In this document: positions 23,031 to 31,741 of the stretch, piece by piece | Numbering within the stretch: the stretch's first letter is position 1 | How the letters are laid out: the number at the start of each line of letters is the position of its first letter | Source: Planctomycetota bacterium | Lineage (GTDB): Bacteria > Planctomycetota > UBA1135 > UBA2386 | Direction: 5' to 3' | Assembly: GCA_965228735.1 (NCBI GenBank) | Contig: OZ245838.1 | Span: 3,456,001 to 3,520,000 of the forward strand | DNA length: 64,000 nt | Program-made: the position numbers and the translations under genes | The notes under the pieces: generated by a model | The model's input: the letters and a program-made list of their open reading frames with translations, nothing else | Told to the model about the DNA's origin: nothing | Databases searched by the model: none

Positions 23031-23606
23031 CTACGCGTCGGGCGGCGGGTTCATCAGCAGGCCGAGCTTGGTGATGGCCCGCCCGAGCACGTTGCGCACG
23101 GCCGAGACCGTGCGCCCGAGGTGCTCGGCGATGTCGCTGTGCGGCATCCCGACGATGCGCGCGAGGACGACGATCTCGCGATAGTCCTCCGGCAGTTCGG
23201 CGAGCGCCGCCTCCAGCCTCTCGACCTCCTCCTGCCCCATGACCTCACGACTCGGTGACAGCCCCTCGTACAGCGCGCCCGACGGCAGCTCGGCCTCGCG
23301 CCGGACGTCGCGCTTCTCGCGGCCGAAGAAGCGGGCGCGCTCGCGCAGCTTGTTCATCGCCGCGGTGAGCAGCCAGCTCAGGAACGGGCCTTCGCCGCGG
23401 AACTCGAACCGGTCGCGTTCTTCGAGGACCTCGCGACACACCGACTGCACGACGTCGACGGAGGCTTCGCGCCGGCGCAAACCCGGCCCCATGTTGACCC
23501 GCACGTACGCGTGCAGCCGCGGCAGGAAGCGCGCGACCATCCGGTCGACGGCGTCCTCGTCACCCGCCGTCGCGCTGCGTTGCAGATCCTCGAACTCCTC
23601 GGCCAC
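23031..23606 (-). CDS. ECF-type sigma-70 factor
   Basis: GTG 23606; VDVVQS...[17 protein letters not shown]...[19 protein letters not shown]. Confidence 0.9.
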
Positions 23607-23657
23607 GCTATCAGCGTAGCTCGATACGATCGTGCGGGAACCGGAATCGGCGCCGCG

Positions 23658-26873
<3,216 letters not shown>

Positions 26874-26932: not shown

Positions 26933-28414
26933 TCAGCGCCGCGGCCGTTGCTGCAGCAGGTAGAACAGCAGGTTGTTGGTGAACAGCGGATTGCTCGTCA
27001 GGCCGATGTGGTCGTCGGCGAGGAACGTCACGCTGTCCCAGTCGACCGGCGAATCGATGAAGCCCTGGCCCATGATCTTCATGTTGGCGAGCGCGCTGAA
27101 CCGCGGCACGGTGCCGTCGCCGAACTCGTAGACGTCGCCGGAGAAAAGCGGCCGCAGGCGGTCGCCGTCGCGCGCCATCCGAACCCGAGCGAGCGTCGGA
27201 ATCGTGTCCGAGGCGAACAACCGCATCTCGACCGGGCTCGGCGTCGGCGGCACGACGTCCAACGCGCGATGGAACCGCGCGGCGACGTCGAGGTTGCGCG
27301 CCAGCAGCCCGCGCGCGCGGTCTCGGCGCGCGGCCGGATCCGGCTCGTCCGGCATGAGCCACTCGAGGTATCGCGCGGAATCGGGATCGAGCAGCCCCCA
27401 CCCGTTGTCGTCCCAGGTCGCGACGTCGAAGAGATCCAGCGCGAGCGGCGCGCCGTTCTCGTCGACCACGAGCCCCATGCCGTTGCGCGGCAGCAACTCG
27501 TAGATCGAGGTCATCGTGCCGAGCAACGCGCGGTCGTAGTGCGGCAACAGTGTCGCGGGCTGGAACCCGTTCAACAGGTTGGCCAGCGACTCCATCGAAC
27601 CGAGGTTGGGCGTGCCGACCATCACGAGCCGGTCGACCTGTTCGGCGCCGGCCCAGGTCACCTCGGGTGCTGCGCCGGCGGCGGGCAGCGGCGCGTCGCC
27701 GTAGCGCAGGTAGTAGCGCGCGACGAGCCCGCCCATCGAGTGCGCGACGAGATCGAACTTCCAGTCGCTCGCGAGCCACGCCTCGATCTCGGCGGCCTCC
27801 TGCAGCGCCGCGGCGTCACCACGTTCGCGCAGCGTATCGACCCGCCCCTGCGCGGACTGGTTGATCTTCGCGCGCGTCGCCGTGAGGTAGTCGTGCAGCG
27901 CGAGCGCGTTGTCCGCGCAGTCACGCCGCCAGTCGTAGAAGAACGTCCAGCACGTGTAGTGGTCCTCGTTGTAGGCCGGAGTCCCCGGATCGAGGAGCAC
28001 CTTGTCGGTGAAGCCGCCGACGCCGAGCGAGCGCAGGATGTTGGCGTAGACGCTGACGTTGATGACGGTGAAGAACAGATCGAGCTCGATCGCGCCGAGC
28101 GGCCCGGACGGATAGACGTCGTAGTCGAGCTCGTCGAGCGCCGGCGTCATCGGCAGCGCGAGAGCGCGTGCGCCCGCCGGTGTCGCCGGGTCGATCGATT
28201 CGCCCGTGAACGCGCCCCAGACCGTCTTGCCCGTCGACCGCTGCTCGAGCCTGGAGCCGAGGATGCCGTGCATCACGATCACCGGGTTGCGAACGTAGGT
28301 GTGCGCCGCGGATTCGTAGATCTCCTGGATCGCTGGCTCGGCGTCGCGGAACGAGCTGCAGCCGCCGGCGACGACCAGCGGAACGAACGACAGGGACAGG
28401 ACGAGGCGCTTCAT
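26933..28414 (-). CDS. Lipoprotein lipase/acyltransferase (LCAT/PGAP1-like alpha/beta hydrolase)
   Basis: ATG 28414; lipobox AGGC; HGILGS, YDWRR, AHSMGG, GTPNLGS, GDGTVP and C-terminal His. Confidence 0.9.
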   Translation of the reverse strand: MKRLVLSLSFVPLVVAGGCSSFRDAEPAIQEIYESAAHTYVRNPVIVMHGILGSRLEQRSTGKTVWGAFTGESIDPATPAGARALALPMTPALDELDYDVYPSGPLGAIELDLFFTVINVSVYANILRSLGVGGFTDKVLLDPGTPAYNEDHYTCWTFFYDWRRDCADNALALHDYLTATRAKINQSAQGRVDTLRERGDAAALQEAAEIEAWLASDWKFDLVAHSMGGLVARYYLRYGDAPLPAAGAAPEVTWAGAEQVDRLVMVGTPNLGSMESLANLLNGFQPATLLPHYDRALLGTMTSIYELLPRNGMGLVVDENGAPLALDLFDVATWDDNGWGLLDPDSARYLEWLMPDEPDPAARRDRARGLLARNLDVAARFHRALDVVPPTPSPVEMRLFASDTIPTLARVRMARDGDRLRPLFSGDVYEFGDGTVPRFSALANMKIMGQGFIDSPVDWDSVTFLADDHIGLTSNPLFTNNLLFYLLQQRPRR

Positions 28415-28440
28415 CGGGCTGGAATGTAGCATTACGACCG

Positions 28441-29697
28441 ATGCTGACCGTGGTGCCCATTCTCCTGACTTCGGCCCTCGCGGTGCCCACGCCGCAGGGA
28501 CCGTCACAGGGACCGTCGCAGGCGAGCCCGGATCCACAGTTCGTCGCCTGGCGGGATCACATCGTGCCAACGGTCGCGGAGTGGCGCTGGCAGCAGATCG
28601 ACTGGCGGCCGACGCTCGGGGCCGGCCTGCGCGCCGCCGCGGCAGCCAGGAAGCCGCTGTTGCTCTGGCTCATGAACGGCCACCCGCTCGGCTGCACTTG
28701 AGGCAACGGAGTCCGGGACCGGCGGGTCTGGTCCGACGAACGACTGCAGGAGCTGGCCACGAACTTCGTGCCCGCGGCCGACGAGGTGTGGCGGCTGCAG
28801 CGCGACGACGAACCGGAGTGCCGCTGGTTCCGCGAAGCCGTGCGCGGTGACCGCTTGCCGAGCCGCGGCTCGATGCAGGGCACCTACGTGCTCACGCCGG
28901 GCGGCGAATGCCTCGGCCGGATCAACTCGGGTGATCCGGAGAAGGTCGCCAGCATGCTCACGGCGGCGCTGACGAAGTGGCGCGCGCGACCGGCGCCCGA
29001 CGATGCCGACGCTGCGGCACCACCGCCGGCCCCGGGTCATCGCTGGGAGCAGAGCTACCCCTCGGACGGTCTCGTGCTCGAACGCTTCGCGCGCGACGTC
29101 GGCGCGGCCCCCACCGAGGAACCGCGTCGCCCGGTGAATCGCGACGCCGTGTGGTTCAGTGCCGAGGAAGCGACCGGCTGGCTGCCCGGCGAGCCCGAGG
29201 TCGGGCAGAAGGGCAAGGTCGCGCCGATCGTCGTCCTGCGTCTCGCACGCACCGCGTTCGTCGACAACGTGCGCGGCCAGACGCTACCGTTCGCCGCCGC
29301 CGAGATCGATCGCGCCGATCTGCTCTACACGGTGCGCGCGGTGGACGACGAGCACGTCGCGTTCGAACTGCGCGGCACCACCCGGGCGGAGGCCGGGGGT
29401 CCGTGGCTCGGCGGCGAGTCCTACTGGCGACCCAAGCGCGAGTGGCCACGATCGCTCGCCACGGGCATGCGCGGTCACGCCATCTGGGATCGCACCGCGC
29501 GCCGGTTCGTCGCGTTCGAGCTCGTCGCGCTCGGCACGCGCCGCGGCCGCACGGCGTTCAACGGTCGCGCGCGCGAAGAGGCCGCGAGCATGCACCGCAT
29601 CGGGTTCGCGCTCCGACTCGCGCCGGCAGAGTTCCGCGTCGCACCGACGTTCGTGAACGTCTACGACGCGGACTGGGTCACGCACCCGGCGAAGTAG
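28441..29697 (+). CDS. Predicted selenoprotein (418 aa, Sec87 at TGA 28699-28701) with an N-terminal thioredoxin-like domain, C-T-U motif
   Basis: ORFs 28441-28701 and 28768-29697 are in the same frame, separated only by one TGA. Read-through gives KPLLLWLMNGHPLGCT-U-GNGVRDRRVWSDERLQELATNFVP; a SECIS-like hairpin follows. Confidence 0.85.
28711..28737 (+). promoter_or_regulatory. Putative bacterial SECIS element
   Basis: GTC-(CG bulge)-GGACCGG-[CGGGT]-CTGGTCC-GAC; the apical loop starts at +22 after UGA with G at loop position 2. Confidence 0.72.
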
Positions 29698-29734
29698 TCC
29701 AACGCCGGGTGGCACCCGCCAGGCATCGACCGCC

Positions 29735-30151
29735 TCAGCGGCCGAGCACCTGTTGGATCGCCTTGGTCACACCAGCCTCGGTCTGGTTGTGACCCGACTC
29801 CTTCCACAGCAACTTCCCCTCGGCGTCGGTAATCACCATCCCGTGGATGTTGAGCTCGTGCTTGGCGATCAACGCCTGCGACTCGTCGGTGTAGTGCTCG
29901 AGCACCTGGAACTTCATGGCATCACCGAACTGCGTTTCGAGCCCATTCACGATGGGCACCACTGCACCGCAGCGCGGTCAATTCTCCATGTTGATGTAGG
30001 TGAGGATCGGCATCGCGCCGGCCTTCGGCTTCTCGCCGGCCTCCGCGATGTTGGAACCGGCATCCGCCGGGTCGGACTTCGGCGTCTCGCTCGTGCAGCC
30101 GAATGTCACGGCACAGAGCGCGGTCAACGCCAGGATGAGGATGAGTCGCAT
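29735..30151 (-). CDS. Predicted selenoprotein: thioredoxin-like lipoprotein (138 aa) with a UxxC motif (Sec58 at TGA 29980-29978)
   Basis: ATG 30151 (MRLILILALTALCAVTFGC). The in-frame TGA gives ILTYINMEN-U-PRC-GAVVPIVNGLETQF...MVITDAEGKLLWKESG, a complete Trx fold. Confidence 0.92.
29929..29974 (-). promoter_or_regulatory. Putative bacterial SECIS element
   Basis: On the mRNA: upper stem GCCCAU-[CGUGA]-AUGGGC (29957-29941), lower stem GCUGCG/CGCAGU; the loop starts at +27 after UGA with G at loop position 2. Confidence 0.72.
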
Positions 30152-30340
30152 GGGAGAGACGATAGGTGGCGACGCGGGCGAACGCCAACCGTGGTCACCC
30201 TGCGACCGTCGAGCAATTCGACGATTCCGCGTTCGGACCGAGGGTTTGCTCAAGTGACTCCGGTTCCCTCCCGATAGTGCCAGGTGGCGGCGACAGCTGC
30301 CGGCGATCGGCGACGATCGTCAACACAGGGAGGGACCGTC

Positions 30341-31741
30341 ATGGTCGTTGAAGCAACCTGGGCGCGAACAGCGCATGGTGTGCTGTTCATCTTCGTGACC
30401 ACGCCCCTGCTCGCGCAGGGCACGTGGAGCTCGGACCCCACGGCCGGCGCGCCGCAGTCGCTCGCGCGACATGCGGCGGCGTATGACCTGCAGCGCCAGA
30501 TGATGGTGCTGTTCGGCGGCCACGACCAGCAATACCAGGTGCTGGCCTCGACGTGGGAGTTCGATGGCGTGACCTGGACGCCGCGCTTCTCGTTCGTCAC
30601 ACCCCCGGCCCGACAGGCCGCCGCGATGGTCTATGACGCGATCCGCGGCCGAATGCTCTTGTTCGGCGGCGCACCGACGACGCAGGTCAACGGTCCGCTC
30701 GACGACACGTGGGAGTACGACGGCAACACGTGGACGCAGCTCGCACCGGCGACCACCCCACCACCGCGATACTCGCACGCCATGTGCTATGACCTCGCGC
30801 AGGGCGTGACCGTCATGTTCGGCGGCCGCATGGCGAGCAACATGATCAGTGGTGACACGTGGTTGTGGGACGGTTCGAACTGGCAGCAGCAAGCCGGTCC
30901 GGGACCGTCCCCACGAACGCGGCACGCGATCGCCTACGATCTCAATCGCAACCGCAGCGTGCTCTTCGGCGGCTACGACGGCGGGACGACACTCGGGGAC
31001 ACCTGGGAGTGGAACGGCGCGAGCTGGAGCCAGCACGCGACGACCGCAGTCGTGGCACCACCCGCGCGCTCGGGACACGGCATGGCCGCCGACCTGTCAC
31101 GTTCGGTGATCGTCATGCACGGCGGCATGCCGGGCGGCACCGACACCTGGGAGTGGGATGGCACGACGTGGAGCCAGCACGGCTCGACGGCGACGCCCAA
31201 GACGGACCACTCGATCATCTACGACGCCCGACTGCAGCGCACGACGCTGTACGGCGGCATGCATCCGCTGCCGCCGATGGCGCTCGCATCGGAGACCGCG
31301 ACCTACGGGCAGCCAGTGCCCGGCACGTTCACGCCGCGCGGCGGCAGCTGCCCGGCGTCCTTTGGCACACCGCAGCTCGCCGCACCGACGACCGGGGTGA
31401 CGGGCCCCGTCATGGGCCAGTCCGCGAACGTGTTCGTCACGAGCACGTGGCTGCACACGTGGTTCGTGCTCGGCTGGTCCGAATCGTTCGACGGCACGAC
31501 CCCGCTGCCACTCAACCTCGCGGGCCACGGCATGCCGGGTTGCGAGCTGCAGGTCAGTCAGGACTCGATCACGAGCGTGCCGCCGCAGAACGGCGTCAGC
31601 ACGCTGACGATCCACGTGCCGTCGAACCCGTTCCTGGTGGGGCTGCGGTTCTACGTCCAGGGGTTCGTCCTCGACCCCGCGGCCAATCCGCGGGGCTTCG
31701 CGACGACGAATCGCCTCGCGGCATTCATCGGCCGCAACTGA
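30341..31741 (+). CDS. Secreted Kelch-like beta-propeller protein with a Cys-pair C-terminal domain
   Basis: GGAGG RBS before ATG 30341; six repeats of P.R..HAM.YD......LFGG....DTWEWDG..W. Confidence 0.88.
   Translation: MVVEATWARTAHGVLFIFVTTPLLAQGTWSSDPTAGAPQSLARHAAAYDLQRQMMVLFGGHDQQYQVLASTWEFDGVTWTPRFSFVTPPARQAAAMVYDAIRGRMLLFGGAPTTQVNGPLDDTWEYDGNTWTQLAPATTPPPRYSHAMCYDLAQGVTVMFGGRMASNMISGDTWLWDGSNWQQQAGPGPSPRTRHAIAYDLNRNRSVLFGGYDGGTTLGDTWEWNGASWSQHATTAVVAPPARSGHGMAADLSRSVIVMHGGMPGGTDTWEWDGTTWSQHGSTATPKTDHSIIYDARLQRTTLYGGMHPLPPMALASETATYGQPVPGTFTPRGGSCPASFGTPQLAAPTTGVTGPVMGQSANVFVTSTWLHTWFVLGWSESFDGTTPLPLNLAGHGMPGCELQVSQDSITSVPPQNGVSTLTIHVPSNPFLVGLRFYVQGFVLDPAANPRGFATTNRLAAFIGRN

Follow-up and report, generated by a model that had tools for sequence, protein, structure and literature searches.

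Two convergent genes, here called A and B, lie within the window (the whole 64,000-nucleotide stretch of Planctomycetota DNA that was analyzed), and each is interrupted by a single in-frame TGA that, judged from sequence, is almost certainly read as selenocysteine (Sec). Their products are probably exported thioredoxin-fold selenoproteins that act independently of each other within an extensive cell-envelope selenium redox network. The four gene fragments called at this locus are all present in the open reading frame list and, as proposed in the earlier note, join into two genes with one TGA each. Gene A runs on the plus strand from an ATG at 28441 through the TGA at 28699-28701 to a TAG stop at 29695-29697, and gene B runs on the minus strand from an ATG at 30151 through the TGA at 29980-29978 to a TGA stop at 29737-29735. 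The features of the locus, in window coordinates, are:

28441..29697, plus strand: gene A, predicted exported selenoprotein of 418 aa when read through, with a signal peptide, a thioredoxin-fold domain and a beta-rich C-terminal domain
28441..28482, plus strand: predicted signal peptide of A, ~14 aa, from a hydrophobicity script and similar N-termini in relatives
28582..28995, plus strand: thioredoxin-fold domain of A, DsbD-gamma / DsbH / AGR (Thioredoxin_7) type, residues ~48-185
28693..28695, plus strand: Cys85 of A, two residues ahead of Sec, a possible resolving residue
28699..28701, plus strand: in-frame TGA of A, putative Sec87, motif C-T-U
28716..28734, plus strand: SECIS-like hairpin of A, loop CGGGU at +22, with an alternative register that has its loop at +19
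29032..29694, plus strand: C-terminal beta-rich domain of A, without a Pfam family, whose profile weakly matches the region ahead of the thioredoxin domain in SELENON-like proteins
29698..29734, no strand: 37-base gap between the convergent stop codons, in which no intrinsic terminator was found
29735..30151, minus strand: gene B, predicted lipoprotein of 138 aa with a single thioredoxin domain and a U-x-x-C motif
29789..29845, minus strand: His103 (ahead of Gly104) and His121 of B, both invariant
29941..29957, minus strand: SECIS-like hairpin of B, loop CGUGA at +27
29969..29971, minus strand: Cys61 of B, resolving position, invariant (28/28)
29978..29980, minus strand: in-frame TGA of B, putative Sec58, first position of the CxxC-type motif U-P-R-C
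30095..30151, minus strand: predicted lipoprotein signal of B, up to Cys19, from sequence and the N-termini of relatives

The Sec reading draws on frames that stay open upstream and downstream of each TGA, four Sec genes in the same genome, conservation of the TGAs and hairpin pairing at the level of the families. The genome is a single contig of 7.19 Mb, and a search for selA, selB, selD and tRNA-Sec, as recommended in the earlier note, returned all four above curated cut-offs, with selD containing an in-frame TGA of its own. Across the class, selB scored above cut-off in 196/201 sampled genomes. TGA was kept at the site in 80/80 fetched loci of A relatives, and a family B profile gave 47 matches in 45/201 class genomes, all 47 with the TGA inside. 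When B loci were inspected, 29/30 had TGA at the site and the remaining one (L067) was a generic CxxC thioredoxin. Cys homologues at the aligned position, a selenoprotein criterion, were found for A (19 of 54 full-length homologues spanning the site), while for B this line of evidence is weaker, as that generic thioredoxin was the sole Cys match and no true Cys form was present among the matches. The proposal that relatives should carry TGA or Cys was therefore borne out for TGA in both families and for Cys in A, and failed for a Cys form of B.

The other 35 of the 54 A homologues lacked both Sec and Cys at the site; among them were one Trp and two Arg, residues that had been named beforehand as counting against Sec. 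These three sequences favor a reading of the TGAs as genuine stops, as lesions of pseudogenes, as errors of assembly or as Trp/Gly codons, to which we give hardly any credence. Against it stand the occurrence of the codon at one and the same place across the phylum, the complete Sec machinery and the 2808 ordinary long frames that TGA terminates in this genome, where a tRNA-Trp(CCA) of the normal type is also present. The concern that the TGAs might be assembly errors was settled by 4/4 sequencing runs (four study codes), which gave single contigs across 28300-30300 with no other letters and no gaps, although these near-identical contigs may include the source itself. No RNA run was listed among those carrying this DNA.

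A hairpin just downstream of the UGA with a G early in its loop, as is typical of bacterial SECIS elements, was predicted at both genes, in agreement with the two hairpins described previously. The conserved loop of family A begins at +19; the window gene is one codon shorter there and is able to fold either the +19 or the +22 hairpin. In family B the inner three pairs form in 28/28 sequences, with double-sided changes in 10 and 12, which largely track two subfamilies and so represent few events. Pairing at the family level exceeded 500/500 shuffles and all slid controls, both in cells paired and in covariation score; related sequences can, however, beat a shuffle control, and the loop G, although invariant, is held in place by the Arg or Val codon it belongs to as well. 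Support for the A and B hairpins comes from these families, since individual hairpins were not clearly more stable than their shuffles (z +1.07, +0.02, -1.19 and -1.80).

AlphaFold models of A (pLDDT 94.0) and B (pLDDT 93.7) were matched in fold searches to thioredoxin folds and to a plain thioredoxin, respectively. Both models place the TGA position after the first core strand, where it caps the active-site helix, in agreement with its earlier assignment to the redox position of the fold. Export signals had also been claimed for both proteins and were predicted here by eye and with the hydrophobicity script; the cleavage site of A was placed by eye, and the lipobox of B is non-canonical in the window protein and canonical in several relatives. 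Cys85 of A is nearly invariant across 35 TGA-type members and is replaced by Gln or Pro in 2/37.

Family A is common across Planctomycetota, and protein databases carry it as split genes. Profile searches matched 99/201 genomes of the class and 93/301 of the phylum, most records of relatives belong to Planctomycetota, and four TGA-type copies are found in this genome alone. The best 120 database matches each span 56-78% of A at 235-358 aa, about the size of the downstream piece, indicating that callers split such genes and confirming that standard annotation misses them.

The closest known folds to A are those of the Thioredoxin_7 (PF13899)/DsbH/DsbD-gamma/AGR2-AGR3 group (PDB 3f9u, 2ju5, 3ph9 and 3ira), from which A differs by its C-x-U motif without Cys at +3 and by an extra beta domain of ~220 aa. 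Pfam searches with 47 A members gave a best E of 0.0034 (matches in 8/47), with the window protein at 14.2 bits for a cut-off of 27, and NCBIfam returned no family at E <= 0.01 for the same members. A PDB sequence search with A gave nothing at E <= 1 and profiles gave only matches at E > 1, while the A profile aligns Sec with the leading Cys in the motifs of AGR2 and 3ira (E ~1, informative for register only). Like catalogued thioredoxin-fold selenoproteins, A and B combine a UGA and a coding-region hairpin with Sec at the thioredoxin active site. The catalogued set, as far as Table 1 of PMC13188914 gives it, includes Trx UxxC, SaoT (NF040730), TsoC (NF045708), TsoX (NF045809), VPGUxxT (NF041383), Trx7/PDZ (NF041199) and Sec.1 (CxU, PF13192). 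That table (2026; 119 prokaryotic selenoprotein families) has no row recognizable as A or B, and the term 'planctomyc' is absent from the portion of the article covered. Similar motif spacing suggested that A might be TsoC (NEPxGxxU), which was rejected as the TsoC model misses A in this genome. Overall, A is an uncatalogued, widespread variant of known thioredoxin-fold selenoproteins, with no model above cut-off in NCBIfam 20.0 or Pfam. Neither family was described in the literature searched, and an earlier description elsewhere is possible. In the part of PMC4807772 covered, Sec use in planctomycetes is reported, along with one split 'hypothetical' candidate that may or may not belong to family A.

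The residue at the Sec position of A varies in some lineages. Ten family A copies (L081-L090), all from one taxonomic family, carry a different residue there, Ser in seven, Thr in one and Asp in two, and the nearby Cys is also absent from 9/10 of them. As selB is retained in 9/10 of the genomes bearing these copies, the A fold is maintained also without Sec or Cys chemistry. When 24 proteins were scanned for additional domains, the A module was found C-terminal to a Ser/Thr kinase in five, a FecR domain in seven and sigma-70 regions in one, often without Cys or Sec. These arrangements would suit a protein A that is mainly a sensor or ligand-binding module, with Sec serving as a redox switch and not in a turnover enzyme. 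We consider this unlikely, because the stand-alone TGA form dominates the genomes with Sec kept at every fetched locus, and no signaling gene recurs beside that form. Neighborhoods of A contained no recurrent neighbor family apart from close relatives, and hence no substrate is indicated. In one genome (G184), a family A gene (L029) is fused to a C-terminal M28 peptidase domain.

Fold and motif mark protein B as a UxxC thioredoxin, and its lipoprotein signal and two invariant His distinguish it from the catalogued set. NCBIfam matches were weak (best E 3e-6; window protein 25.7 bits, cut-off 140), and aligned members share 22-48% identity with the window protein and an invariant U-x-x-C (28/28). 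B is a small new subfamily. In classical thioredoxins a cis-proline opposite the active site impedes the binding of metals; SCO proteins, which combine a thioredoxin fold with His, bind copper. The cis-proline is missing in B, where an invariant His-Gly is found instead and Gly104 falls on the usual cis-proline position, with the register coming from a weak thioredoxin alignment (E 0.55). Together, the missing cis-proline and the two invariant His in the sequence hint at metal binding. It is accordingly conceivable, though doubtful, that B is a lipoprotein that binds a metal such as copper, zinc or mercury through Sec58, Cys61, His103 and His121 and is not an electron carrier. Both His are retained in 28/28 members despite their low identity, and the Gly at the cis-proline position and the precedent of SCO point the same way; against this, the fold of B best matches ordinary thioredoxins, and a role in electron transfer is preferred here.

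Genes A and B belong to a larger set. When 37,724 TGAs in this genome were scanned by coding score, 189 and 173 rows resulted, from which 47 candidate Sec codons in 44 genes were chosen by eye. Visual inspection removed the remaining rows, most of them taken for gene boundaries or shadow frames, and candidates at 1750195 and 4384168 were dropped as unconvincing (40 scanned further). A hairpin with the loop N-G-(G/U), a strict rule written after the candidates had been seen, was present at 41/47 candidates compared to 201/2808 terminal TGAs and 490/5606 Cys codons. Export was predicted for 28 of the 44 genes by the hydrophobicity script and for 32 by eye. Family scans identified peroxiredoxins, four TlpA/ResA-like proteins, DsbD, MsrA, AhpD, deiodinase-like, HMA and SelW-like proteins, and others; the TGA was kept in relatives of the three unclassified candidates that were checked, and a scan for Sec close to the C-termini of this genome's genes gave no convincing case. 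The total comes close to the top-ten BSepDB genomes in Table 2 of PMC13326102, which range from 46 to 63 selenoprotein genes. The genome is probably aerobic, as a full-length match to cytochrome c oxidase subunit I (644.5 bits; cut-off 670.75) suggests aerobic respiration. According to the part of PMC13188914 covered, aerobic bacteria rarely retain selenoproteins, a statement that would be contradicted if some 44 mostly exported selenoprotein genes are real in an aerobe.

Several individual candidates were recorded. The DsbD gene (4263499, L201) has its in-frame TGA in the U-x-x-C of the outer thioredoxin domain, without a hairpin by the strict rule. A cobalamin-independent methionine synthase-like gene (1761498-1762646; L187, L225) also has an in-frame TGA, with TGA and hairpin in 6/6 close loci and Cys in 6/6 more distant homologues; Table 1 of PMC13188914 has no row for this family. 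Three exported FG-GAP repeat proteins carry U-C (3065085, L194; 406817, L181; 5872224, L214), with relatives in 35/41 genomes of the family and one TGA in 46/47 matches, and ASPIC/UnbV FG-GAP candidates resembling the one at 5458926 in this genome are listed in S9 Table of PMC4807772, as far as that source was covered. Two in-frame TGAs each were found in an unclassified exported protein (1929-2561, L179), a tandem HMA protein (583169-583819, L182) and a VPGUxxT type 2 protein that scored above cut-off (6693398-6694873, L216).

Against this background, we assessed whether A and B form a pair. The earlier note had grouped them as one redox module, and the most specific form of that idea, that the two proteins are a dedicated module with lipoprotein B as the reductant of A, is improbable. 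The genes are adjacent here and in the same-genus genome G154 and are separated by one gene in G039, from another family; both proteins are predicted to be exported and their motifs are complementary. However, the genes converge and are not co-transcribed, and A and B lay within 5 kb of each other in only these 3 of the 28 class genomes having both, many of the other 25 being drafts with A and B on different contigs. The remaining same-contig distances were 61 kb, 163 kb and 2.3 Mb. Linkage beyond close relatives was not obtained. B was within 4 kb of A in 1/80 further loci, which was not counted as an extra case. Moreover, A was unmatched in 17/45 of the genomes with B, and B in 71/99 of those with A. 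For 44 candidates among 5,200-6,400 genes, the chance of some adjacent pair is 0.26-0.30. Convergent orientation, poor linkage and this chance level led us to reject the module, and A and B are likely neighbors by chance, as members of the genome-wide exported selenoprotein set; their pairing adds little. No promoter or terminator was found in a scan of the locus. The surrounding genes encode a kinase-WD40 protein (23511-26873, plus strand), an alpha/beta hydrolase-type protein divergent from A (26933-28414, minus strand), which also lies beside A in a same-genus genome, and a Kelch-repeat protein divergent from B (30341-31741, plus strand).

For A and B as independent parts of an envelope network, the following course can be proposed. 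SelB would bind the hairpin 19-31 bases downstream of the UGA, leading to Sec insertion. Protein A would then be exported, with Sec87 at the attacking-cysteine position, where it may reduce or rearrange oxidized cysteines of envelope proteins; Cys85 would serve as an optional resolving residue and the beta domain likely binds the target. Protein B would act as a membrane-anchored U-x-x-C thioredoxin that passes electrons on, and both proteins could receive cytoplasmic electrons through DsbD.

Family A also bears a likeness to selenoprotein N (SELENON). A natural Cys homologue of A (29% identity, 245 aa) retrieved a 'Selenoprotein N' cluster at rank 2 with a score of 0.90, although a score of 0.9 is also reached by 4-10% of shuffled proteins. 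A metagenome motif scan yielded eukaryote-type and bacteria-type SELENON-like sequences with Sec ~290-480 residues from the start, and a profile of these retrieves named Selenoprotein N. When thioredoxin profiles were compared, A and the SELENON-like sequences matched at 94% with Sec in register; as A also matched ordinary Thioredoxin_7 proteins at 96%, this match is not specific. The beta domain of A matched the SELENON-like pre-thioredoxin region over 110 columns (55.7%, E 1.2e-4; reversed control 0.3%, best of 49 null families 4.7%), whereas the reverse direction gave 5.9% (null 4.5%), eukaryotes alone 0.4% and a first, shallow profile comparison only 3.7%. When HMMs of the SELENON-type N-part were run over the 61,526 frames of this genome, the A copies were not ranked, and a pool of A homologues reached only E >= 0.016. 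With the C-terminal portion of a Cys homologue as query, the three matches listed in an atlas search were unnamed clusters, and when the complete A model was used in fold searches its thioredoxin domain took up the results. SELENON is further characterized by calcium sensing through an EF-hand and by a target of the SERCA type; no EF-hand was matched by Pfam in the window protein A, the SELENON-type profile A6 had no match in this genome, and PDB searches showed no entry for SELENON, a human muscle-disease protein.

Both SELENON and A are predicted to lie outside the cytosol and have a Cys close to Sec. In contrast, the SELENON motif is S-C-U-G (PMC12839072, from the part covered) and that of A is C-T-U-G, and the thioredoxin domain of SELENON is C-terminal behind ~290-480 residues whereas that of A comes first. 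A was consequently rejected as a SELENON member on motif and domain order. With the weak reverse and eukaryote-only scores and no HMM detection, the swapped order is only a lead. We tentatively suggest that family A may be a domain-swapped bacterial relative of human SELENON, with the thioredoxin domain leading and the orphan beta domain of SELENON behind it. It would belong to a large exported selenoproteome (~44 genes in this genome) in a probably aerobic class with near-universal Sec use that also has full-length SELENON-like genes. If this link is true, Planctomycetes would hold the family from which SELENON derives, and small soluble bacterial models could help define the SELENON fold and its chemistry.

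Full-length bacterial SELENON-like genes in the SELENON order were also collected (L244-L361, with L362 and L363 from G001 and G060), mostly matching eukaryote-type sequences at E 1e-22 to 1e-47. A literature search found no paper describing a bacterial SELENON, and a thesis is said to deal with a SELENON orthologue in Poribacteria. Within the class, such genes occurred in 8/101 genomes, which do not include this one, and TGA was confirmed in 2/4 fetched. In this genome, 2546238 (L191) and 5497385 (L212) mark exported C-U and A-U thioredoxin-fold proteins without a Pfam or NCBIfam match; the protein at 2546238 reaches 97% to the SELENON thioredoxin profile, closer than family A, and TGA was present in 6/6 matches (41 genomes).
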